This document shows, one piece after another, positions 350 to 13,688 of a DNA stretch of 13,932 bases. The position numbers and the translations under genes were made by a program. Within the stretch, counting starts at the first letter, position 1; every line of letters begins with the position of its first letter. The stretch is from the UHGV virus genome UHGV-0136738, one strand, 5' to 3'. Source of the stretch: a virus. Below the pieces are notes generated by a model. It had not been told where the DNA came from. It did not search any database and saw only the letters and a list, made by a program, of their open reading frames with translations.

Positions 350-2242
350 TTATGTCATACGGTAGTGCACCCAAGAAGATATAGCAACACCAACCGGAGT
401 TGGGCGTGTAACGTTTATATTGCTACCTGAAATATACGCTCTGTCAGCGCTAGCAGCGGAATCGTTGGCATACGCGGTGCATATATATGTCTCAGGACCC
501 TTATTAGATATAGTGACTGTCCCACTCCCTCCGCCGGATGCAATAGGAACCTCTATAATTCCGTCTGTATTAACACCGGTATTGCCGACGTAGGTATTCA
601 CCGCAGATTTAATAGCATCTGTTATTGACGTTAGCGTGTTATTACGTATAGTCAGATTGCCGCTAGATTGCAGGTAAAGCGCGGCCCCTAAGATACACCC
701 ACTAACTACACTCCCCGAGGTATTGCTGTAAAAAGCAATAGCGAAGGTATTAACGCCGCCACCAGTCGCTATAGTGCAATCCTTAATCGCCATCTTACCA
801 GCACCTGGCCCTATATTTATCCCGATGTTATTGTTGGTTGCATTTGAGTTCTCCGCGTTTATGTGGAGGCCTTGTAGCAGTTTATGCTGTTGCGCGGACG
901 ACATATTCGGGAACGTGACACCGAAGAATTGGTTAGTACCACTACCATCAGCGGCTATCCATGAGTTTACTAAGCTAAATCCACCATTTACGTTTTGAAC
1001 AACAACACCAGAATCCTGGCAATAATCCAGGTCCAAATTTGATAGATGGATATCGAGGCCGTCGTCGATGTACACCCCGTGTTGGAAGCGTATACACATC
1101 GTTTCGCCATTTACAATAATGGCTTCTGAGCGCACTGGGTTCGACCCATTCCACGTGTAGGTAGTTGGTTGAATACGAATGCCGAAACTATTAGAAACAG
1201 GGCCGCCGTCTCTACTAAAATGACAGCCACTAACCAATACACTGACACATTGGCCGAGTAAATGCAGCCCGATTCGACATGTACCCGCCTGACATGCTAT
1301 AAACTGGGAGTGCCACAAGCCTTGCATAAGATACGCCGTGTCTACCTCATTAACAGAAACGTGGTCAAACTTCCAACCGTACACTTGACGAATTACAGAG
1401 TCGGTAGAAGACAGATTAGTGTCAATACCGTTACATGAGTTATTGCCGGTGATTGATATGTCTTTTAAGTACCTGCCTATAGTATTTGAATCGTAGGCCA
1501 GGCGGAGTACCGCCCCCGTAAGAGTACTTTTTGCTCTAATTTGGGACCCTCTTCCATCCCCGCGGATATTAACTCCAGACGGAACCGTAACGGTGCTTCC
1601 GACATAGTAACCAACAGCATATTTACTAGCAGGTATGTAAACCTCCACACCATTAGGAAACGCCGCAGATACGGCATCGAAGCACGCCTGAAACGCGGCT
1701 GAGTTATCTGTGACCCCGTCGTCCACAACACCAAAATCAAGAACGCTTATGATGTCAGCGTTCTTTTCGTGCTGGCTTCTCGGTGACGAGTCGGTGATGT
1801 CCAGTTTAACCGCAACAAGGGCGTCCCCCATTAGTATGTCAGAGCTATCAGCCAAATTTTCCCGTAAATCCGGGTCAGTTTGCGGCTTCCAGTCGGCGCT
1901 GCCAACCGGATTAAAACTGGCAGGGACCACAACTGGCAGCGTACCAGCGTATGAGTACCACGTCTGGCTAACCGGGTCGTAAACCACTTTGTCGCGGTCA
2001 TTAACTGTCAACGTACCGCCGGTGGAAAAGTCCCATGACACCGGAGAAAAACCTGCGTCGCGTAACACCGCCGGAAGCGTCTTCTGTGTCTGGCCCGTAA
2101 CAGCGTTGGTCGCATAATCGATATCTGCACCGCCAGCGACGCCACCGGACTTACCAGTAATAACCTCGGCTTCAAAAATCTGGTGTTTCTTGGCGGTCTG
2201 TAAATCCGCCAGGCTTAAAACGTCACCACATCCGCTTGACAT
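350..2242 (-). CDS. tailspike / tail fibre protein with pectate-lyase-like right-handed beta-helix (putative polysaccharide depolymerase)
   Basis: 630-aa ORF with ATG at 2242 and SD AAGAGGA about 7 nt upstream. Residues about 165-190, ISVLDFGVVDDGVTDNSAAFQACFDAV, match the signature recalled for pectate-lyase-superfamily beta-helix tailspikes (DFGAxGDGxTDDTxAxQxA). The rest is rich in G/N/S/T-x-V/I repeats typical of beta-helix rungs. It is the last gene of the tail module. Confidence 0.8.
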   Translation of the reverse strand: MSSGCGDVLSLADLQTAKKHQIFEAEVITGKSGGVAGGADIDYATNAVTGQTQKTLPAVLRDAGFSPVSWDFSTGGTLTVNDRDKVVYDPVSQTWYSYAGTLPVVVPASFNPVGSADWKPQTDPDLRENLADSSDILMGDALVAVKLDITDSSPRSQHEKNADIISVLDFGVVDDGVTDNSAAFQACFDAVSAAFPNGVEVYIPASKYAVGYYVGSTVTVPSGVNIRGDGRGSQIRAKSTLTGAVLRLAYDSNTIGRYLKDISITGNNSCNGIDTNLSSTDSVIRQVYGWKFDHVSVNEVDTAYLMQGLWHSQFIACQAGTCRIGLHLLGQCVSVLVSGCHFSRDGGPVSNSFGIRIQPTTYTWNGSNPVRSEAIIVNGETMCIRFQHGVYIDDGLDIHLSNLDLDYCQDSGVVVQNVNGGFSLVNSWIAADGSGTNQFFGVTFPNMSSAQQHKLLQGLHINAENSNATNNNIGINIGPGAGKMAIKDCTIATGGGVNTFAIAFYSNTSGSVVSGCILGAALYLQSSGNLTIRNNTLTSITDAIKSAVNTYVGNTGVNTDGIIEVPIASGGGSGTVTISNKGPETYICTAYANDSAASADRAYISGSNINVTRPTPVGVAISSWVHYRMT

Positions 2243-2254
2243 ATAGAGTCCTCT

Positions 2255-4810
2255 TTAATAAAAACCGTTGCTGAATCCGTCGGAGAAACCGCGACCGAAA
2301 GGCGCGACGCCGTCGTATTTATAGAAACCTTCATCATAGTTGTAGCCCGTAATCTTAACCGTGCGGTCGTCGCCTGGGTCGATTGAAGAGACAACTATCC
2401 TCTGAGCATTATGCCTTGCTTCGTTGCCGAATGAAAACTCAGTTTTTAGTGCACTATTCCCGGTGTAAATGGCTTCCTCTGGTGCGGATAGCATAACCAC
2501 CTCGCGGTCGTGGCCTCCTTTGATAACAGAAATACTCTGTACCGAGCCGTCGCGCTTCTTGAGGATGATTGAGTGGTCGTCCCCTGGGGTGAACGTAACA
2601 GGCTGTGACAGAGTTAGCGTAAGCCCATTAACGGCAACAACATAACCATCCTGAGGCGCGATACGTGAACCTTTAACCACGCTGATTACACCACCCGGTG
2701 TAGCGAGTGCACCCTCTTCGGTAGCTTCGAACTCTACGACAACTTTACTTAACGCGTTGCGCTGGTAGCGACGCCACGCCAGCCAATATGCCTGCTGATA
2801 GTTACGTACGCCCTTCGATTCATATTCCTCGGTGTTTGCTCCGAGTTCTTCCGGGATATAAATCGTTTCCTGTACGTTAGTATCCGGGTCGATGTATGAG
2901 AACGACAGGCTATCATAGGTTGTCGAATCGTTGAACGTGCGCGTCCATTTCTCTGTACCAGTAGTTTTGCTGCGGTGAGTGAACACCATCTCAGGCCCTG
3001 CGACCGGGCGGTCGAAGCGCAGCATAATATCCGCACCTTTACGGTACGCAGTACAGAACACGGCTTCCGCTATGGTCTGAACGATGTCCTGCATGGTTGT
3101 GTCGTAATCGTCGAACGTGTAACAGAATTGCCCGGCTAACTCACTGCCGAAATAGGATTCAATCTCTTCCTGCACAGCGAGTAACTTGTCCATGTTTGCC
3201 GTCGTCAGTTGCAGATTGCCTACTGCGGGGTCGCGGGATAGTCTGATTAGCGACTGAACCGCCTGTGTATTAGGCGTCATTACTGTATCGAATACCCCAT
3301 TGCCGAGGTATTTGTAACACATCTCTGTCGCAATCATGCGTAGTTCCGGGTTGTCGATACTGGCGGCACGCGGCGTCTGTTTGCGGGCACAATGTACGGT
3401 AGTTCGGTTTCCGTAGTGCGGGGTGGTGTCCAGTGACTGACCGTACAGGTTGATGAATGTTATCTCGTCGCTTACCGTTCCGTCGTAGTCCTTATCGAAA
3501 TTCGTTATGCGGCGCATACGGGCGCGGAAACGGGACGCGGTCGGCAATTGCCCGTAAATAGATGTGCCAGCGTAATCGGTGCTATTGCCCGTAATTGTAG
3601 CCCGTACCGTGTAAATGTCGCTCAAAGGGTTGCGTTGAGAGTCAATCATCTGGTACTGGAGTTCTACGGTTACGCTGGTGCGGTTATATCCTCCGTCGTA
3701 TTTGTAGAGGCCGTTCTGCCCAGCTACGTTAACTAGCACACGGTCAACTTCTCCGCGTACCATGTAATACCAGTCGGTCAGGGATACATCATAGGTGTTG
3801 CTAGGGCCGATAAACGTATCTGAACGCTCTGTTAACGTGTACGTCTGCCCGCTAGTCAACGCCGCCCAGTTAGAAGCTCCGTTTACCGCTAATCTTACTT
3901 CGAAGTCGTCAACGTATAAAACCTCAAACGAGCCATTCAGGTTAGTGACATCAGCGACGTCAAAGTTGCTCAGCACCGCGACATCACCAACGCTAAGAAA
4001 TTCAGAAAAAGCAGAGTCACCTGACGGGTCATAGATGTAGCCGGTGTTTGAAATACGTTTAGCTGTACCGTCGGCGCTTGGGTTAGCTCCGATGTCGTTT
4101 GGCGCTTTCAGTACAATACCGTCAACGTCGTCGTTGGAGTATGTAACGTAGAGTTTCTGGTCAATGACGTCGCCGATTTGTAGTTGCGGTGAAGCGGTGT
4201 TGTTCGGAGAAGTATACGGCGCATACACGGCAACAGAGGAACCGGTGATGTCGCTTATCAGGGTGTCCCCCTCCGTGACACCATCAGCCTCGATATGCAG
4301 ATGCCCGCGACCAGCGTCATAGTATGAATACTCCAGCAAAGCACCAGTGGAGTTGAACGCTTTATACGTCTGCATCAGGTCGTTAGGGATTGTCTGCACA
4401 GTCCCGCAGATGTCGTAAGAGCGCTCGTACGGGCGAGGCTTGTTTGAGCGGTCTGTGAGGCTGTTATTCGGAGATGTTGTCTGGTTATTTGTTGCCGTGT
4501 AGTTGGCGTTAGCAGACATGTTAAGACCGAACAGTTTGGCGATAGGCTTGAGGATAAAGCCAAATACCTTACTAACCGCGCTAAGCGCGCCACTACCGGC
4601 GCCCTCAATAATATGGTAAACAGCTTCTTCATCTTTAAGTGCGTCGAAGTCGTCTGTTACGTCAGTATCATCGCCGATTTCACCGAGGTAGACGCGCACG
4701 GGCACACCGTCCGGGATACGGTTAACGACAAACTCCATCGGCATCCCGACGTGTTTTGTACGGTCGAAAGCGCCTTCAGCGTTTCGCGTGTAATGCAGGA
4801 TTATCGCCAA
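2255..4810 (-). CDS. large tail-tip / host-specificity protein (gpJ-like position), putative
   Basis: 851-aa ORF directly upstream of the tailspike and downstream of the NlpC/P60-like gene, the position held by the central fibre/host-specificity protein in lambda- and GTA-like tail modules. Start is ambiguous: TTG at 4810 with GGAG 8 nt upstream, or the first ATG at 4744. No catalytic motif recognised. Confidence 0.5.
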   Translation of the reverse strand: MAIILHYTRNAEGAFDRTKHVGMPMEFVVNRIPDGVPVRVYLGEIGDDTDVTDDFDALKDEEAVYHIIEGAGSGALSAVSKVFGFILKPIAKLFGLNMSANANYTATNNQTTSPNNSLTDRSNKPRPYERSYDICGTVQTIPNDLMQTYKAFNSTGALLEYSYYDAGRGHLHIEADGVTEGDTLISDITGSSVAVYAPYTSPNNTASPQLQIGDVIDQKLYVTYSNDDVDGIVLKAPNDIGANPSADGTAKRISNTGYIYDPSGDSAFSEFLSVGDVAVLSNFDVADVTNLNGSFEVLYVDDFEVRLAVNGASNWAALTSGQTYTLTERSDTFIGPSNTYDVSLTDWYYMVRGEVDRVLVNVAGQNGLYKYDGGYNRTSVTVELQYQMIDSQRNPLSDIYTVRATITGNSTDYAGTSIYGQLPTASRFRARMRRITNFDKDYDGTVSDEITFINLYGQSLDTTPHYGNRTTVHCARKQTPRAASIDNPELRMIATEMCYKYLGNGVFDTVMTPNTQAVQSLIRLSRDPAVGNLQLTTANMDKLLAVQEEIESYFGSELAGQFCYTFDDYDTTMQDIVQTIAEAVFCTAYRKGADIMLRFDRPVAGPEMVFTHRSKTTGTEKWTRTFNDSTTYDSLSFSYIDPDTNVQETIYIPEELGANTEEYESKGVRNYQQAYWLAWRRYQRNALSKVVVEFEATEEGALATPGGVISVVKGSRIAPQDGYVVAVNGLTLTLSQPVTFTPGDDHSIILKKRDGSVQSISVIKGGHDREVVMLSAPEEAIYTGNSALKTEFSFGNEARHNAQRIVVSSIDPGDDRTVKITGYNYDEGFYKYDGVAPFGRGFSDGFSNGFY

Positions 4811-5681: not shown

Positions 5682-7082
5682 TTAACCGTCCACATTAAAG
5701 TCGATACGAGTGATATATTTACTACCCCACGCGGAGTCCGCCTGCGGGATAATGGCGTAGTTATCTACGGCGGGTACGTTTACGGTAGACCCATCGGAAT
5801 AGGTAATGTCGATACTTGTCGCGCCGTTCATGGTTACTTTTGCGGATGCCGTGGTCCGGGTCACAGATGAAGAACCAGTTACTATCGGGGACGTGGCATG
5901 GCCTGATGGTTCCATTTGTATCAACGCGATATTGAACCCGCTGACACCATCCCCCGTGAAGGTGAGGGAGTTAGACGACGACAACATGTTTATCTGCGAA
6001 TAAATCAATCCGCCAGAGTCGTTAGTGTCCGCGGACATTGAAACGTGATACCACCCACCACCGAGATTACTTACAAACGACCTTGAGGTGTCGCCTGATA
6101 TCAAATCACCAGAGGCTAAGTCAACATAGGCATACTGGAAATTATCTAAAGCGGCTGGGTTGCCGATGGTTACCGCTGCTGACTGGTACTCATCTGCTTT
6201 CATAATAGCACTAATAGAGTATCTTGTTTCTTGTTCTGGGGCCTCTGGCTGGTTTATATAGTGGCTCCCTGATACCGACGTTGCGGCTAATTTAGCGGCG
6301 TAAGTTTCTTGGAATAACATCAAAGAACTCGCCGTGGTTGTTGTTCTGGTGCGTGAAAATGATGTAGATAGTAAGTTGTTAGAGTGTTCTACCACGTTGG
6401 TTGAAGCGCTTTCCGGCGGCACACGCCCAACAGCAACCCCATCGATAAACGTAAGGGGCCATTCATCGGCAGCGGACGGCACAAGATTGCCGTTTCGGTT
6501 GATGTAGTAAACCTGCGGCCCGTCATACACAATGCGGTTATCTAGTGTAGACGCCAGAAGGTTAATCGGTGGATAACCCGCGGGACCTTCGTTACTCCAG
6601 ATGCGGGGGAACGTAGTTTCGTAGTTCGCGTATATCTTAAGGAAACTGCCCAGACAGTCGCCGTAGCAACCATACAAATCCGGCAGATTGTTAATCAGGC
6701 ACTGGTTCTCAAGGTCCTGGAACGGCGATTTCTCAGCGGTTGCCGTGAAAGTAATCGTCCAGTTAATGCCATCTTCGGTGGACTCCGCGATGGTTGACGT
6801 AATGGTTACCTGGTAATCCTCGATACCCATGCCGAAGTCGTGCGCCATCCAGAAACTGGACGCGCCGCCGTCTACTTTCTCAAGAAACGCGAGGAAAGTC
6901 TGTCGTCCAAGCGCGGAGGTGATAAGCGTCACACTGACAGGGAACACGTCATAATAGGTGTCACGCCCCTGACGGACGCCACCACCCGCTAAATCAACAC
7001 TCCAGACGTTGTTACGTCTGGTCATCGAGTAGCCTTTCGACACAATAGGCTTAAGGCTACGTGGAAAAAATAAGTCACCCAT
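5682..7082 (-). CDS. minor tail protein (distal tail protein position), putative
   Basis: 466-aa ORF whose ATG at 7082..7080 overlaps the TMP stop codon as TAATG, indicating translational coupling. It is the first gene after the tape measure, where the distal tail or minor tail protein usually sits. Confidence 0.5.
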   Translation of the reverse strand: MGDLFFPRSLKPIVSKGYSMTRRNNVWSVDLAGGGVRQGRDTYYDVFPVSVTLITSALGRQTFLAFLEKVDGGASSFWMAHDFGMGIEDYQVTITSTIAESTEDGINWTITFTATAEKSPFQDLENQCLINNLPDLYGCYGDCLGSFLKIYANYETTFPRIWSNEGPAGYPPINLLASTLDNRIVYDGPQVYYINRNGNLVPSAADEWPLTFIDGVAVGRVPPESASTNVVEHSNNLLSTSFSRTRTTTTASSLMLFQETYAAKLAATSVSGSHYINQPEAPEQETRYSISAIMKADEYQSAAVTIGNPAALDNFQYAYVDLASGDLISGDTSRSFVSNLGGGWYHVSMSADTNDSGGLIYSQINMLSSSNSLTFTGDGVSGFNIALIQMEPSGHATSPIVTGSSSVTRTTASAKVTMNGATSIDITYSDGSTVNVPAVDNYAIIPQADSAWGSKYITRIDFNVDG

Positions 7083-9355
7083 TATTTGAACCCCGGCGCG
7101 TTTCTTGTGGCCTTGCGGGCCTTGCTAATCTTACTGTTACTGTTCTGCAAAGAGGCGGCGACCTGTTCCTCGATGATGATGCGCAGACGCCCTTCATCAT
7201 CCTGCTCGGTGGACACGTTGCCGATTTGCGAACTCGTGTTGTTTACGATGGTAACATTAGATGGGCCGGAAGAAGACCCGTTTTGGCCCATAATCTCTTT
7301 CATTTGTTGCGCGGTGCGTACTCGCGACGCCCCCGCGGGCATAATTACCTCAGGTTTACCGCGTTCGGCGATGGTGGAAGCCTGCCCCGCGGATAACTGG
7401 CCCCCCTGTTCACGCGCGGACCTGATAGCGGAAACCTGCGCCATACCGGCCCCAACAGCAGCGGCAGCGGCTACTGGTGCAAGGAATGGCCCAACAACCG
7501 GGATAGCAGCTGTTGACTTATACGCTTCAATAGCTGCAGTATACGTAGCGATAGTGGCCTGCACAATCGCGAACGCCTTATAAGCGCCGGATGCTTCACC
7601 TAACGCGGATCCAATGTTAGAAGCCATGTTACCAAAAGCTGTTGCCGTTGCGTCAGCACGCTTGGTTGCGTACTGCTCGTTGATGGCGCTAAGCGCAGCC
7701 TGATATTGCTTCTCGCTAATAAGACCTTGTTCTCGGTACTTATCGGCTACCGCCAGTTTCTGCTGTTCCTGAATATCCAGAAGCTCAAGCTCGGTGGCGT
7801 TCTGGCCCATAATCTGAGCCATGAAATCCTCACCTTTCTGTTGCTTATCCTGGGCTTCTTTCTGGCGTTTATCCAGTTCATCCTGCCGTTTTTGCCCTGC
7901 TTCAAGAACAATGGCGGTTTTAGCCTGTTCGTACTCTTTTAACGATAGCGCACCCTGACTGTAGAACTCTTTTGCTTTAGCCAGTTTCTGCTGCTCCTGG
8001 GCGTCAATAGCCTTTAACTCGTCATTGTTCTGACGGGCCAAAGTGTCGAGGTAATCTTGTGCCTGATTACGCAATTGTTCTGCTTTCTTAGCGGCTGCTT
8101 TTGCTGCTTTATCGTCGGTTTTCCCCGTCCCACCAGTCCCGCCTTTTTTATCAACAAGGCTGGCTAAGTCGATTTCTTGCTTCTTGCGCTCGTCATACTG
8201 CTTGCGCTGTTCCTCAATTTCTTTCTTACGCTGCTTAGACCTGTCGGTAATGGCCTGGGACTCCGCCTCTGCGCGTTTTATGCTGGCGGCATATGCGGCG
8301 TCGGCCTCCGCAGTCAGGTTTTTAAATGTGAGCGCTGCCGTTTTGCTCGGGTCAAACACGTCAGCAAGAGTCTGGCCTAACGCTACGGCATAATCATCAA
8401 TGCGCTGAAACCATGCAATAACCTCGTGGAATGTCTGCTGAATGTCAGGCAACCACTCACGGATAGCGTCAGGGATTGTGCCAAGCGAATCTGACATGTT
8501 CGCCGATTTGTCTTCTGTGTCGTACGCCAAATCATTCAAGGCGTCAGAAATAAACTTGAACGACTCATTGAACAGCGTCGCCCAATCCTGGAGTGTGGAT
8601 GCTATCTCATTAGACGCAATGGCATCGGTGAGCGCAGTTACTGCGTCTTCGGCCGCCGCGGCTTGCTCACCTACGGCGTCGCCAAAACCAGACTGCGCTA
8701 CCGCAAGAACAAGACCGTCAAATGAGTCAGCAAGGCTCGACAACTGCCCGTCAAGGGTCTTCGAGCGCGTCTCCATCGCTCCGGCGAAATCAGTATTGCC
8801 GATGTTTAGCAGGTATTTCTGAATCTCTTCGGAGTTCTTCTTGACCGTGGTCGTTACGCCACGGAACGTGAACGAAACTGTGTCCGCCTGTTGGGAAGAC
8901 TTGATGCCGAACTCTTTTAAGCGCTCGAATTCAAATGTACTGGCGTCAGCAACTGCCTCAATCATCTGGTTAAGGTCTTTACCCATCGCAGCCGCAGTGT
9001 TGCCGTAGGAGATTAACGCCTCTTTGCTGGGGTTAAGCCCGAGCGCCACGAGCTTGGTAAATCCCTCTACAGCCTGGTTAAGCCCGTATGGTGTTTCTTT
9101 AGCAAACTGTTGCAGGACGCTGAAAGCCTTTGCCGCGTTCTCGGCGCTTCCGGTCATTGTGATGAGTCCGGAGTTCAGCTTATCGAAGTTGCGCTGAGAG
9201 TCCACCAGCGCGCTGAACACCTGTTTAGCGGTTTCCAGACTGACAACGGCAGCTGCCGCCGCCCCCGCCGCCTTGGTAAGCCCGTTCAGTTGAGATGTTG
9301 TTTTATCGACGCCGGTCGAAGATACTCGTACTATCAAACTAGCGGTATCAGCCAT
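7082..9355 (-). CDS. tail tape measure protein
   Basis: Long ORF, 757 aa from ATG at 9355 (AAGGT SD about 8 nt upstream; the ORF track extends to TTG at 9370). Ala-rich N-terminus, a long charged coiled-coil centre with two internal repeats (residues about 449-484 and 526-560), a hydrophobic Ala/Gly/Val-rich segment near residues 595-650, and location directly after two chaperone ORFs. Confidence 0.85.
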   Translation of the reverse strand: MADTASLIVRVSSTGVDKTTSQLNGLTKAAGAAAAAVVSLETAKQVFSALVDSQRNFDKLNSGLITMTGSAENAAKAFSVLQQFAKETPYGLNQAVEGFTKLVALGLNPSKEALISYGNTAAAMGKDLNQMIEAVADASTFEFERLKEFGIKSSQQADTVSFTFRGVTTTVKKNSEEIQKYLLNIGNTDFAGAMETRSKTLDGQLSSLADSFDGLVLAVAQSGFGDAVGEQAAAAEDAVTALTDAIASNEIASTLQDWATLFNESFKFISDALNDLAYDTEDKSANMSDSLGTIPDAIREWLPDIQQTFHEVIAWFQRIDDYAVALGQTLADVFDPSKTAALTFKNLTAEADAAYAASIKRAEAESQAITDRSKQRKKEIEEQRKQYDERKKQEIDLASLVDKKGGTGGTGKTDDKAAKAAAKKAEQLRNQAQDYLDTLARQNNDELKAIDAQEQQKLAKAKEFYSQGALSLKEYEQAKTAIVLEAGQKRQDELDKRQKEAQDKQQKGEDFMAQIMGQNATELELLDIQEQQKLAVADKYREQGLISEKQYQAALSAINEQYATKRADATATAFGNMASNIGSALGEASGAYKAFAIVQATIATYTAAIEAYKSTAAIPVVGPFLAPVAAAAAVGAGMAQVSAIRSAREQGGQLSAGQASTIAERGKPEVIMPAGASRVRTAQQMKEIMGQNGSSSGPSNVTIVNNTSSQIGNVSTEQDDEGRLRIIIEEQVAASLQNSNSKISKARKATRNAPGFK
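7691..8026 (-). repeat. internal duplication within the tape measure gene
   Basis: Peptides ELKAIDAQEQQKLAKAKEFYSQGALSLKEYEQAK and ELELLDIQEQQKLAVADKYREQGLISEKQYQAAL lie 76 codons apart. Their DNA cores gccagtttctgctgctcctg (7980..7999) and gccagtttctgctgttcctg (7752..7771) are 19/20 identical. Confidence 0.6.
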
Positions 9356-9680
9356 GATTTCTACCTTCAAAGATTGCTTCTAGGCCCATGATAATGTCTA
9401 TCTCAAACAGGCTAAGCTGTTTCTGTGTGACGTCGAGATAGGCTTTCAGGTCTTGCCACGTTACGGATTCTCTTGCAAACAATACTACCGCGTCATCGCG
9501 CACGTGTCGCGTAAACTTAATGTCGCAATACGTTTCAAAGGTGGATATGAAAAGGGGCGGGCATTCTGGCCCACCCCGTCGCGCTGCACGTTTTTTCTTA
9601 TCGATTACACCCATTGCGATAAGCGCCTGTTCGTGACCGTCGGCTATAGAATCAAATTCTCTGATTTTATGCTTATCCAC
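9348..9680 (-). CDS. tail assembly chaperone, T-like distal ORF (possibly made as a G-T fusion by -1 frameshift)
   Basis: 110-aa ORF from GTG at 9680 with no convincing SD. The same frame is open upstream to 9731 and overlaps the end of the 139-aa ORF in the -1 frame. Its TGA at 9350..9348 lies just inside the TMP start (ATGGCTGA). Confidence 0.5.
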   Translation of the reverse strand: MDKHKIREFDSIADGHEQALIAMGVIDKKKRAARRGGPECPPLFISTFETYCDIKFTRHVRDDAVVLFARESVTWQDLKAYLDVTQKQLSLFEIDIIMGLEAIFEGRNHG

Positions 9681-9712: not shown

Positions 9713-10132
9713 CTACTTTTCCTGCAATGCTTTACGCTCAGCATTATGGAACGCTGCCACCTGAGTACCAAGCCCCTTGAACTGGTCTAGAAGCTTATTA
9801 AACGCCTCTTTGGAGAACGGTTCATCATCAAAGCTCCAGCCGTTGACGACTTCCGCAGCGAGTTGGCGGTTCAGGTCTTCTGCCAGTTCATTAATCGCCA
9901 GGTTATATTCAGTATAGTCGCCGGATTCTTTGGCGGCTTTTTCGAGTTCTTCAAAACGTGCAAGCCCGCGACGGTACGCAATAATGAAAGCGCGACCCGC
10001 TTTAACGGCGACATCGGCATCAGGGCTTACTACGTTAAGCCACTCCCCCGAGTCTTCACCGTTCGGCAGGAGAATCGGCATCTTCTTGCCTACCATCGCT
10101 TTCTCTTCAAAATAAAAATCAGAAAGTTTCAT
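9713..10132 (-). CDS. tail assembly chaperone (G-like)
   Basis: 139-aa acidic ORF immediately upstream of the T-like ORF and the tape measure gene. ATG at 10132 has SD AAAGGA about 8 nt upstream. Confidence 0.6.
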   Translation of the reverse strand: MKLSDFYFEEKAMVGKKMPILLPNGEDSGEWLNVVSPDADVAVKAGRAFIIAYRRGLARFEELEKAAKESGDYTEYNLAINELAEDLNRQLAAEVVNGWSFDDEPFSKEAFNKLLDQFKGLGTQVAAFHNAERKALQEK

Positions 10133-10299: not shown

Positions 10300-10491
10300 A
10301 TGTCCAGTTTACCAATTTCCTTAATCCTGTTTGCACTGCTCGCGTACTTTGCGCCTTTTTTAGTCGCCTATTTCCGTAACCATAAAGCAAAGCTGGCGAT
10401 ATTTATGGCTAACTTATTTCTCGGGTGGGTTCTGTTGCCGTGGGTATTCATTTTAATCTGGGCTTGCAACTCGAACGTGAAAGAGAAGTAG
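10300..10491 (+). CDS. small membrane protein resembling the superinfection-immunity (Imm_superinfect) family
   Basis: 63-aa ORF with SD GAAGGGG 7 nt upstream of ATG. Two predicted transmembrane helices. Sequence YFAPFLVAYFRNHKAKLAIFMANLFLGWVLLPWVFILIWAC fits the pattern recalled for that family (YF-P, A-x-R-x-H, IF-x-NL-x-LGW, W, LIWA). Confidence 0.5.
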   Translation: MSSLPISLILFALLAYFAPFLVAYFRNHKAKLAIFMANLFLGWVLLPWVFILIWACNSNVKEK

Positions 10492-10529
10492 GCTACTATA
10501 AGACAAATCCTAAACACGAGGAAGTAAGC

Positions 10530-11270
10530 ATGGCCCAGAAGAAAATAACCGACGAGCAGTTACAGGAAGAATTGAACGCCGGGGTGAAGAACGTAGATAT
10601 CGCCCGTAAATACGGCATCTCAGACCGCGTTATCCGAATCCGTAAAGCGAAGCTGGCTAAGAAAGGCGTAGGCCACGGGCGTGACGTAAGCCACCTTGTA
10701 CCAGACGGCTACAAGATTAAGGGTACGTCGTCTCTGGTGGACGAGTTCGGTAACACTAAGTTGCAGTGGGTTAAGACAGACACCGATGCCGAACGTCAGG
10801 TTGAGTTGATGAAAGCCGTAGTCGAAGGCATGAAGTCGGAGATTACTCCCGTTCCGCCAGTTAAGGCCGCCCGGGCTAAACGTGACGACAAGCTGCTTAA
10901 CCTGTACACCGTGTCTGATTTCCATCTCGGTATGTTAGCCTGGGCTGACGAGAGCGGCGACGACTGGGATATGAAAATCGCGGAGGACTTATTTTCACGA
11001 TGGTTTGATGCCGCGTTTCAGAAAGCACCGGATGCAGGTACGGGGGTTATTAATCTTCTTGGCGACTTAGCGCACTTCGATAGTCTTGATGCCGTTACAC
11101 CAGCAAGCGGTCATGTCCTTGACGCCGACACGCGTTACCAGAAACTTGTTCGCTATATGATTCGCATGGTACGCCGTGTTGTCGATATGGCACTGGTTAA
11201 ACATAAAACTGTTCGCTTGCTTATCGTGCAAGGGAACCACGACGAATCCGGGATGATTTGGCTGGCGTAG
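10530..11270 (+). CDS. HTH domain fused to N-terminal half of a calcineurin-like (SbcD/Mre11-type) metallophosphoesterase, ending at an in-frame TAG
   Basis: ATG at 10530 with strong SD GAGGAAG 5 nt upstream; the ORF-track GTG at 10425 overlaps the preceding gene. Residues about 17-42 (GVKNVDIARKYGISDRVIRIRKAKLA) look like a helix-turn-helix. Phosphoesterase motifs I (VSDFHLG), II (GDLAHFD) and III (GNHDE) follow. TAG at 11268..11270. Confidence 0.7.
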   Translation: MAQKKITDEQLQEELNAGVKNVDIARKYGISDRVIRIRKAKLAKKGVGHGRDVSHLVPDGYKIKGTSSLVDEFGNTKLQWVKTDTDAERQVELMKAVVEGMKSEITPVPPVKAARAKRDDKLLNLYTVSDFHLGMLAWADESGDDWDMKIAEDLFSRWFDAAFQKAPDAGTGVINLLGDLAHFDSLDAVTPASGHVLDADTRYQKLVRYMIRMVRRVVDMALVKHKTVRLLIVQGNHDESGMIWLA

Positions 11271-11660
11271 ATGTTCAGCACACTGTACGACAACGAGCCT
11301 CGTGTGTTCGTCGATACGTCGCCGGATGTGTATAAGATGGTGCAACACGGCAAAACGACGCTGTTCTTTCATCACGGGCATAAGGCACGCTTCGACGCAA
11401 TCGAGCCTGTTATGATTGCCAAGTTCCGCAAAGCGTTCGGCGAGAGCGTCTACAGCTACGCGCATGTAGGCCACCTCCACCACCAGAAGATTGTCGAAAG
11501 CCGTAACATGATTGTCGAACAACACCGCACCTTAGCCGCTAAAGACGCATACGCCTCCCGTGGCGGATGGATGTCAGGCCGCGGGGCAAATGTAATTACT
11601 TATAGCGCAGAATATGGCGAGGTCGCACGTTTAACTATTTCACCGGAGATGCTGGGATGA
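11271..11660 (+). CDS. C-terminal half of the same metallophosphoesterase (motifs IV-VI), same frame as the upstream ORF
   Basis: ATG at 11271 directly follows the TAG and is in the same frame (11271 minus 10425 is divisible by 3). Contains FFHHGH and AHVGHLHH, matching the downstream His and GHxH motifs of the fold. Ends with ATGA overlap into the next ORF. Confidence 0.65.
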   Translation: MFSTLYDNEPRVFVDTSPDVYKMVQHGKTTLFFHHGHKARFDAIEPVMIAKFRKAFGESVYSYAHVGHLHHQKIVESRNMIVEQHRTLAAKDAYASRGGWMSGRGANVITYSAEYGEVARLTISPEMLG

Positions 11661-11887
11661 CTTCAAAATACGACAGAACTATGACAAATATACACGGCAG
11701 CACGATGACTGTTGATGTCTATGATGTCCTCCGCGCTTTCGACATCCGAGACCCGGCGCTGCAGCACGCATTGAAAAAGTTGCTGTGTATGGGTCTACGC
11801 GGGCACAAAGACACAGGCACGGACTTAGAAGAGGCAATAGAAAGTCTGGAGAAGTTACGAGAGTACCGGAGTAATATTGATGAGTGA
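11657..11887 (+). CDS. hypothetical protein (76 aa)
   Basis: ORF whose start overlaps the upstream stop as ATGA, consistent with translational coupling inside the cassette. No motif recognised. Confidence 0.45.
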   Translation: MTSKYDRTMTNIHGSTMTVDVYDVLRAFDIRDPALQHALKKLLCMGLRGHKDTGTDLEEAIESLEKLREYRSNIDE

Positions 11888-11894
11888 AAGTATT

Positions 11895-12056
11895 ATGAAA
11901 ACAATATATGTAATCAGAATATACGATGAAGAATGGGATGAGTGGGTAGACATTTACGCCGTTGGAAGTAAGGAAGAGGCGTCAAAAGAAATGACAGAAA
12001 GAAGTGACCGAGGCCAGTTAACTAACTTCTATGAAATGCCATTCAAAAGTGAATAA
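11895..12056 (+). CDS. hypothetical small protein (53 aa), AT-rich
   Basis: ATG 11895 to TAA 12054..12056, translation MKTIYVIRIYDEEWDEWVDIYAVGSKEEASKEMTERSDRGQLTNFYEMPFKSE. Uses A/T-rich codons (ata, aga, aaa) unlike neighbouring genes and has a weak SD. Ends 4 nt before the terminator hairpin. Confidence 0.3.
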   Translation: MKTIYVIRIYDEEWDEWVDIYAVGSKEEASKEMTERSDRGQLTNFYEMPFKSE

Positions 12057-12084: not shown

Positions 12085-13269
12085 TTATGCGTAGGTGATA
12101 CGCTGAATAACGATAGACGACTGATATTGGTTGCCCGTAGCCTGGCCTTCAATAGACTGAGTGATAGACTCTGGGCCGCCAATCTCTGGTGTAACTGCGG
12201 TCAACTCCGCACGTTTCAAACTGAAAGACATAGCCCCGTTTACCCCCGCCAGAATAGAGTTAATCTCTACCTGTTGCTCGTTGATAAACTTCTGAATCAT
12301 AGCCATGTCGTACAGTTTGCCCGCGATGGAAAAGGTGTTAGCCGCACGGCCTCGTTCAACGAACGCTACGTTACTGTTGCCGAGTTCGAACTGGGCGGAA
12401 GCACCGTTATCGTTGGTGATGGTCAGCGTGTCGCAACGCAACGGCGACGTACCATCGAACACTGACACATCTACAGATGAGAACGGCTCATCGGTAAACG
12501 TCACCTGAGAGAAATCAGAGCCAGCCGGAGGTGCAGTAAGAATCTCCTGGCTCAGGCCGATGAACGGGAAGCTGCCGGTTACCATCGCGTTAACCGCCTG
12601 CTCGATAGTGAAGCCGGAAATCTCAACTCCTTTGGTAAGCATGTACGCGTCAGGGTTTCCGCACTGGCCTTTGAACCAGGTCAGGATAGAGAACGTTTTA
12701 CACGCGTTACCGGTTTCCAGCTTGTCGCCGGTTTCCAGCTTGTCGCCGGTTTTAGCGTCAGTCGTTACAGTTTCTGTGGTAAGCGTGTGCTGAATACCTG
12801 CGCCTGTTACGACAAGAGCGGAAACTTCGGTAACGATGAATGGCTTCGCGTTATCGCCTGTCAGACCGGTGAACGCGATAAGGTCGCCAACTTCAACGCC
12901 GTCGGTAATGAAGCTACCGGTTGCGCGGGTGAACGTTTTACCAACCGGCGCAACCGTAATTTCCGCGCCAGTAATCTCGACGCCAGCCTGCCACGTAGAT
13001 GTCATCGCACCTGCGAGGAAATCATCCTGACTTTTTGAGCTAAGCTCGATGGCGTATTCCCCGGTTACCTGTTTGTTACCTGTGCGGATAGACGTGGTTT
13101 CACGGCTGCCGTCCAGTTCGTTTGACGTCAGTGCGTCACGTGTTACCGCGGGAACACCGCCAGTATTGCGCAACGGCGACCATACCGGGGAAGTCGGTGT
13201 TACGCCCGGGGTAGTTTCCGCCACATAGAATTGCGCGGTATTCGCGCCCTTAAAAGGAGTTGTAGCCAT
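12085..13269 (-). CDS. major tail (tube) protein, putative
   Basis: About 394 aa from ATG at 13269 (SD AGAGG 8 nt upstream; the ORF track starts at GTG 13275). Ser/Thr/Gly/Val-rich beta-type composition. Lies after a tail-terminator-like gene, is followed by a terminator, and precedes the chaperone/TMP genes. Confidence 0.5.
   Translation of the reverse strand: MATTPFKGANTAQFYVAETTPGVTPTSPVWSPLRNTGGVPAVTRDALTSNELDGSRETTSIRTGNKQVTGEYAIELSSKSQDDFLAGAMTSTWQAGVEITGAEITVAPVGKTFTRATGSFITDGVEVGDLIAFTGLTGDNAKPFIVTEVSALVVTGAGIQHTLTTETVTTDAKTGDKLETGDKLETGNACKTFSILTWFKGQCGNPDAYMLTKGVEISGFTIEQAVNAMVTGSFPFIGLSQEILTAPPAGSDFSQVTFTDEPFSSVDVSVFDGTSPLRCDTLTITNDNGASAQFELGNSNVAFVERGRAANTFSIAGKLYDMAMIQKFINEQQVEINSILAGVNGAMSFSLKRAELTAVTPEIGGPESITQSIEGQATGNQYQSSIVIQRITYA
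12710..12753 (-). repeat. perfect 18-bp tandem duplication inside the major tail gene
   Basis: Plus-strand unit ggtttccagcttgtcgcc occurs twice in tandem (12712..12729 and 12730..12747), followed by a partial third copy ggtttt. It encodes the in-frame peptide repeat TGDKLETGDKLETG. Confidence 0.9.
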
Positions 13270-13271
13270 AT

Positions 13272-13688
13272 TCACAGCCTCTTGGTGAATGCAATAAAGT
13301 TAATCGACAATGGTCTTTTGGCCCATCCATTTTCTACAATCAGCGGCCCCAGGCTAACCGATTGCACTTCGGCGCAGATGTCGTTACGTGAAAATGACTT
13401 ACCTGCTTTGAATGCCGTGTTAAGTAAGTCTGCCATTTTATTGATTGGCGCGCTACCTTTCACCGATGCGTAGTTAATGTCTACCTGATAAACACCGGCG
13501 CGTTGCTCGGTGAAGAATAAGTCGGCCTGCTCTGTATCCGCCAGCAGCATGTAGCTAGCCAGATACGGCGTATCAGTTGACGTTGGGGCGTCGATATTTT
13601 CAAGCGCAACTTTGATGCCGTTGGTGTTTCCGAAGGCTACCAGCGGCACGTCAAACGCTTTTGTTAAATCCTCAAAGTAGCCCATCAT
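13272..13688 (-). CDS. tail terminator / tail completion protein-like, putative
   Basis: 138-aa ORF with SD AAGGTG just upstream of tandem ATG codons; its stop lies 2 nt before the major tail gene ATG. Size and position match a tail terminator; no motif recognised. Confidence 0.4.
   Translation of the reverse strand: MMGYFEDLTKAFDVPLVAFGNTNGIKVALENIDAPTSTDTPYLASYMLLADTEQADLFFTEQRAGVYQVDINYASVKGSAPINKMADLLNTAFKAGKSFSRNDICAEVQSVSLGPLIVENGWAKRPLSINFIAFTKRL

Follow-up and report, generated by a model that had tools for sequence, protein, structure and literature searches.

A probable slippage duplication at a domain hinge of the tail tube protein in a gut-metagenome relative of Kagunavirus phages

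In the virus genome UHGV-0136738, the gene for the tail tube (major tail) protein carries an 18-bp unit twice in direct succession. This arrangement raises the questions of whether the second copy is really present in the phage, how it arose, and whether it has any consequence for the tail. We analyzed the whole stretch of 13,932 nucleotides in which the gene lies (hereafter the window, whose numbering is used throughout) together with homologous genes of related phages.

Tandem Repeats Finder placed the array at positions 12710–12752, with a period of 18, 2.4 copies, 100% matches, and no indels. A self-match scan detected 25 perfect bases at period 18 from position 12710, the longest such match in the window; 30 shuffles of the window gave no tandem self-match longer than 10, and analytically ~7e-10 such matches would be expected per window. 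Read on the minus strand, the repeat is AA-ACCGGCGACAAGCTGGAA-ACCGGCGACAAGCTGGAA-ACCGG. The two copies of the unit are identical and lie head-to-tail without a spacer, copy 1 at 12733–12750 (minus strand; T174–E179) and copy 2 at 12715–12732 (minus strand; T180–E185). They are in frame within the open reading frame at 12085–13269, which is intact, and code for T174-G-D-K-L-E / T180-G-D-K-L-E / T186-G in the protein context ...T-T-D-A-K / TGDKLE / TGDKLE / T-G-N-A-C-K.... The perfect 18-bp in-frame tandem duplication that a preliminary description had reported in this tail gene was thus borne out. Position 12753, named there as the end, already breaks the repeat, whose last base is 12752; the unit given there, DKLETG, is the same duplication read in another register. 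A second, weak tandem repeat was also detected by Tandem Repeats Finder at 4572–4590 (9-bp unit CTAACCGCG, 2.1 copies, 90% matches), inside the large J-like tail protein gene (2255–4810).

The gene that contains the duplication (12085–13269, minus strand) has 394 codons from its ATG, with the stop codon at 12085–12087. Its product matches the Pfam family PF18906 (Phage_tube_2) with 124.2 bits against a cut-off of 27 (residues 8–377 on positions 1–266 of the 266-position profile), PHROG 290 with an E value of 7e-79, and the solved "major tail structural protein" 8xan with an E value of 3e-20 (phmmer). It contains two tube-fold beta-sandwich domains in tandem, which can be superposed on solved tube proteins; the product is of the fused double-domain type and has an insertion domain inside it. 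Fused two-domain tube proteins build trimeric, pseudo-hexameric rings; on the basis of its fold similarity, the protein examined here would likewise be the ring-forming major tube subunit. By profile and fold it belongs with the fused double-domain tube proteins such as T5 pb6, P74-26 gp93, and the major tail protein of Acinetobacter phage SH-Ab15497 (PF18906).

The tube gene is part of a tail module. Immediately upstream of it is the tail terminator gene (13272–13688, minus strand; Pfam PF13554, E value 9.5e-14), and the tube gene itself lies upstream of the genes for the tail assembly chaperone (9713–10132, minus strand), the tape measure protein (7082–9370, minus strand), the distal tail protein, and the tailspike, an order shared with phage K1ind3. 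The tube gene and the chaperone genes are separated by a block of plus-strand genes (10300–12056), which includes a superinfection immunity protein (PF14373, 10300–10491); K1ind3 and other relatives have this arrangement as well. The whole window is 87–90% identical to coliphages of the genus Kagunavirus (Guernseyvirinae), and it is a gut-metagenome relative of these Escherichia coli K1 phages. Only one GenBank record matches some part of the window at 99% or more, and that match is outside the first 2.4 kb. The tube gene DNA is at most 87.4% identical to any relative retrieved.

Two other features of the genome were observed. The tailspike gene (350–2242, minus strand) encodes a pectate-lyase-like central domain and a Tailspike_C domain, and a near match in GenBank phages was found for only ~29% of positions 1–2400; given this low coverage, the receptor-binding part appears to be new with respect to cultured Kagunavirus. 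In addition, the metallophosphoesterase or "DNA repair exonuclease" gene (10530–11660, plus strand, 376 codons; K1ind3 ORF20, Bas76_0022) has an in-frame amber codon TAG at 11268–11270, where K1ind3 has GAG and Bas76 has GAA (Glu247). Apart from this codon, both halves of the gene are intact and highly conserved; the next codon, at 11271, is an ATG. The amber codon could be a very recent nonsense mutation, the mark of a split gene, or a consensus error.

To place the duplication in the protein, we used the alignment with 8xan and a structural model. In the alignment, nothing in 8xan corresponds to query residues ~96–181: its TWNA continues straight into DALVNGVTRRSFSIL, which aligns with DKLETGNACKTFSIL of the window protein. 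Residues ~96–173 (12751–12984, minus strand), located between an outer helix (82–89) and the next strand of the core, were therefore assigned to an insertion domain. This domain is well predicted (pLDDT 85–95), and a search of residues 96–191 gave no Pfam match at E values up to 10. In canonical tube folds, the helix that corresponds to residues 82–89 is on the outer face; since the insertion domain follows this helix, it presumably decorates the outside of the tail.

The strand of the tube core that comes after the insertion domain starts with the motif T-G-D-K-L-E-T-G-N-x-C (residues 180–190; 12700–12732, minus strand). T186, G187, and C190 do not vary among 138 homologues, 136 of which also have D182. 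In the same set, the motif in its general form, T-G/A-D-K-L/I-E/G-T-G-N/S-x-C, has a mean entropy of 0.70 bits, compared with ~1.0–1.1 elsewhere in the protein. Copy 2 of the unit occupies the position of this conserved motif adjoining the tube core and aligns with the single copy of all homologues, and copy 1 is the extra copy in the model. An AlphaFold model built on 139 homologues (50–95% identity) had a mean pLDDT of 89.9 and a pTM of 0.87, with a dip confined to the extra copy: the block of residues 171–180, which includes a strand at 178–180, had the lowest internal value (74), and the block 181–190, with a strand at 182–185, had 93. A first AlphaFold run on 86 close homologues was too poor to be used (mean pLDDT 55.6, with values below 50 for residues 171–186). 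In the model, copy 2 is predicted to take the native position of the motif, and copy 1 is drawn, at lower confidence, as an additional element forming a hairpin partner. As the two copies are in tandem, a complete hinge motif (GDKLETGNxC) is preserved next to the core. The other copy would simply lengthen the linker, and was modeled as a short beta-hairpin partner (strands 178–180 and 182–185).

These data do not agree with the idea of a variable loop. The preliminary description had assigned the repeat to a probably surface-exposed loop; mapping onto the predicted structure did show lower confidence, although for the extra copy only, and the sequence affected is a conserved motif at the junction of insertion domain and core. 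A length-tolerant domain hinge is a better description.

Cysteine residues are also conserved in this part of the protein. C190 and C203 (12661–12702, minus strand; CKTFSILTWFKGQC), 13 residues apart, do not vary in any of the 138 homologues, which extend down to 50% identity, and close relatives show hardly any variation at C279. The conservation of the C190/C203 pair suggests a disulfide or another conserved role. Disulfides between rings of tail tubes have been described for another family of tube proteins, PF08813 (PMC13576161). Our literature search retrieved no paper on the 8xan structure or on the tail structure of Kagunavirus.

Comparison with known tube proteins showed in which respects the window protein differs. 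In its first tube domain, the outer helix is followed by an extra domain of ~80 residues, which 8xan lacks; T5 pb6 has a C-terminal Ig-like domain instead. The insertion domain would resemble the decoration domains of lambda gpV (Ig-like), SPP1 gp17.1* (FN3), and T5 pb6 (Ig-like) in being accessory, presumably outside the tail, and attached through a length-tolerant hinge. It differs from them in being internal rather than C-terminal, and is not recognizably Ig-like by sequence; the Pfam search of residues 96–191 did not connect it with the Ig-like or any other known decoration family.

We then examined whether the duplication occurs in other phages. A single copy was found in all eight GenBank relatives that were aligned, at both the protein and the DNA level, and in the ~80 of 117 GenBank relatives that were inspected, judged by the span of the gene (1173 or 1176 bp vs. 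1191 bp in the window). Among 61 IMG/VR loci, none had an 18-bp excess of length, and all 33 genes with a readable hinge had one copy. An exact degenerate pattern for the 18-bp duplication had no match in IMG/VR. A looser pattern for doubled DKLET matched 137 times across JGI metagenomes, GTDB genomes, and IMG/VR, but none of these sequences was a tube homologue by tblastn, and all were rejected as chance matches. The 18-bp allele is thus new, being absent from every GenBank record and IMG/VR gene examined, and the duplication is the derived state relative to these relatives.

The DNA of the single-copy genes also suggested how it was formed. In ST20, K1ind3, and the reconstructed ancestor, the heptamer AAACCGG brackets the unit, with an interval of 18 bp (...AAAACCGGCGACAAxCTGGAAACCGGT...). 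Three occurrences of this 7-bp microhomology (CCGGTTT on the plus strand) are kept on the minus strand of the window, at 12746–12752, 12728–12734, and 12710–12716. A short bracketing direct repeat is a classic substrate for slipped-strand duplication, and the arrangement of AAACCGG around the unit in single-copy genes is what one would expect of slippage, or of any template switch between short direct repeats. Starting from an ancestral single-copy gene of the form ...GCT AAA ACC GGC GAC AAG CTG GAA ACC GGT AAC..., the nascent strand may have slipped during replication from the second AAACCGG back to the first, 18 bp upstream, and would then have copied the 18-bp interval again. The product would remain in frame and be six residues (TGDKLE) longer. 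It is the anatomy of the junction that argues for slippage; unequal recombination between co-infecting genomes would look the same.

The duplication shares with the class of slipped-strand or microhomology-mediated tandem duplications the identical head-to-tail copies, the bracketing 7-bp repeat kept at the junction, and the derived state. Its mechanism is not different from that of the class, and what is unusual is the location only, a single hinge hit five times independently (see below). A recent slippage event had been proposed for the repeat. The slippage part of this proposal is supported by the derived state and by the 7-bp direct repeat in the single-copy genes, whereas "recent" is supported mainly by the absence from relatives: with a divergence of 12.6% from the nearest gene, the perfect match between two 18-bp copies is only weakly informative (P ~0.1 if the duplication were as old as the split).

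To see how the length of the protein varies, we inspected the 120 cluster representatives that ranked best in the homologue search. Four of them, from metagenomic relatives, have an abnormal length, and all four carry tandem duplications within the same ~20 codons. In P0001 (locus L009), a 33-bp unit coding for AKTGDKLETGN is present in perfect copies, with the microhomology ACGC. P0002 (L010) has a 33-bp duplication of AKTGDKLETGN with the same boundaries as in L009, one mismatch between the copies, and the microhomology ACGCA. A 33-bp unit in a different register, SKAKTGDKLET, was found in perfect copies in P0004 (L011), with a microhomology of ~10 bp (AAACCAGTAA). The last, P0062 (L012), has perfect copies of a 9-bp unit coding for TCK, with the microhomology ACGT; this duplication adds a third Cys beside C190 and C203.

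Identities to the closest genes, computed with gap columns masked, showed that each of the five duplicated genes, including that of the window, is closest to a single-copy gene: L009 to Bas76 (99.2%), L010 to an IMG/VR gene (99.1%), L012 to K1ind3/K1H (96.3%), L011 to a single-copy gene at 93.3%, and the window gene to one at 87.4%. Among themselves, the duplicated genes are 82–92.5% identical, and the copies in L009 and L010 carry the synonymous states of their own backgrounds. The single-copy nearest genes, the low mutual identity, and these synonymous states together indicate that the hinge was duplicated independently at least four more times in related phages, which would make five events in all. 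In L009 (1005–2732, compared with locus L001), the tube gene is 99.2% identical to that of Bas76, whereas the flanking genes are only ~90–91% identical; this contrast indicates mosaicism, the tube gene having recently been exchanged between genomes.

No other indel of three or more residues was found anywhere in the protein among 236 cluster representatives in two sets. We considered whether the hinge is a uniquely good substrate for slippage. The reconstructed single-copy gene contains six direct repeats of at least 7 bp with in-frame spacing within 60 bp, of which AAACCGG is one, and none of the five others has a surviving duplication. The idea of a unique substrate was therefore rejected, and the concentration of duplications at the hinge is better explained by structural tolerance.

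Taken with these results, two explanations that would change the meaning of the repeat can be weighed. The extra copy might be an artefact of assembly or sequencing, the phage being really single-copy. The sequence is known from metagenome assemblies only, and the amber codon in a conserved gene of the same genome could hint at consensus errors. However, identical DNA was found both in ENA ERZ28620746 (a human-gut metagenome assembly; scaffold OBRE15-1_SAMN03283289) and in a Logan contig of run SRR1761716, with 100% identity to the window across 4.8 and 4.2 kb, respectively. Although the two probably derive from the same sample, two different assembly pipelines thus agree completely, repeat included. 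The repeated stretch is just 25 nt long, far below read length and also below the k-mers of such assemblers (31 or more), so that no cycle in the assembly graph can make a copy. Moreover, the junction bears the microhomology signature of a biological event, and analogous duplications are present in four unrelated samples; an artefact is therefore very unlikely. If the copy is real, it might belong to a contingency (phase-variable) locus, in which the copy number changes often and reversibly to switch properties of the tail. Related phages do differ in length at the hinge, and tandem duplications are intrinsically prone to revert. On the other hand, there are never more than two copies, and the lineages do not share one expandable array, since each has a unit of its own kind (9, 18, or 33 bp, in three registers overall). 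The unit length is a multiple of three, which does not allow on/off switching, and more than 95% of the genes are single-copy. Variation of the same unit with at least three alleles among close relatives was not observed, and pattern scans of three collections added no doubled motif in tube genes. We give this explanation hardly any credence. The suggestion that the copy number can vary between isolates holds for length variation at the site, but not for the 18-bp unit itself, which occurs in one or two copies only, the other variants being made of 9- or 33-bp units.

A further possibility is that the duplications are adaptive. The hinge and the insertion domain on the outer tail tube might be under episodic positive selection in gut phages, the hinge duplications and the substitutions E98K and T167K serving to reshape the exterior of the tail. 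The pressures involved may be a changed adherence to glycans of the cell surface or of mucus, or evasion of a host factor that recognizes the tube protein. Five independent duplications within ~20 codons, with one 33-bp register used twice at only 4–5 bp of microhomology, are consistent with this. So are the amino-acid changes in two pairs of genes that are at least 99% identical: L009 differs from Bas76 by 6 nonsynonymous and 3 synonymous changes, and L010 from L017 by 9 and 1 (the tube gene being at 1501–2700 in both L009 and L010), which gives 15:4 compared with 8:127 in five control pairs (Fisher's test, P = 6e-12). Eleven of the 15 changes fall in residues 96–173, the insertion domain (binomial, P = 1e-5), which is normally under strong purifying selection (pN/pS 0.02–0.05). 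Systematic sequencing error is an unlikely source of the changes in L009 and L010, as the substitution types are varied and the contexts are not homopolymers. E98K (in L009 and L010) and T167K (in L009 and L012) are charge-changing substitutions, and their parallel occurrence favors selection. However, a ratio of 15:4 equals the neutral expectation of ~3:1, and relaxed constraint or new mutations that have not yet been purged fit as well as positive selection. The insertion domain has no Pfam match. All five alleles are singletons, without spread within a clade and absent from the cultured isolates inspected. In the window tube gene, pN/pS relative to the nearest relative is 0.03, the same as background, although this relative is too distant for a recent burst to show. 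We consider the adaptive explanation improbable on the whole, though likelier than the two above.

The most reasonable reading, to which we assign a probability of about 80%, is that the repeat is a real tandem duplication, mediated by microhomology and young in evolutionary terms, at a length-tolerant hinge. All five duplication alleles are singletons at the tips, and none was found in cultured isolates (~80 of 117 GenBank records inspected); together with the absence from the pattern scans, this fits short-lived, neutral-to-slightly-deleterious, reversible variants. Under this slippage reading, the allele would persist because the hinge is the one place that tolerates extra length in a protein that has no indels elsewhere. 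For the virion, the duplication is probably neutral or slightly deleterious, and it may alter the reach or flexibility of the decoration domain rather than the tube lumen or the ring contacts. Neutrality is an assumption here; the five recurrences, the shared 33-bp boundaries, and the bursts of amino-acid changes in two lineages could indicate selection.

Taken alone, the 18-bp duplication is an ordinary, textbook slippage allele, a kind of feature that is already known, and means little beyond a tube-protein hinge that is six residues longer in an uncultured Kagunavirus lineage. The useful part is the comparative result, five in-frame duplications in one hinge of ~20 codons in a protein otherwise free of indels. 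It marks the hinge as a site of a siphophage tail tube at which insertions are naturally tolerated and which might be used, for example, for peptide display or for tagging of therapeutic Kagunavirus phages, and it makes the adjacent insertion domain a candidate for lineage-specific adaptive change and a possible hotspot.
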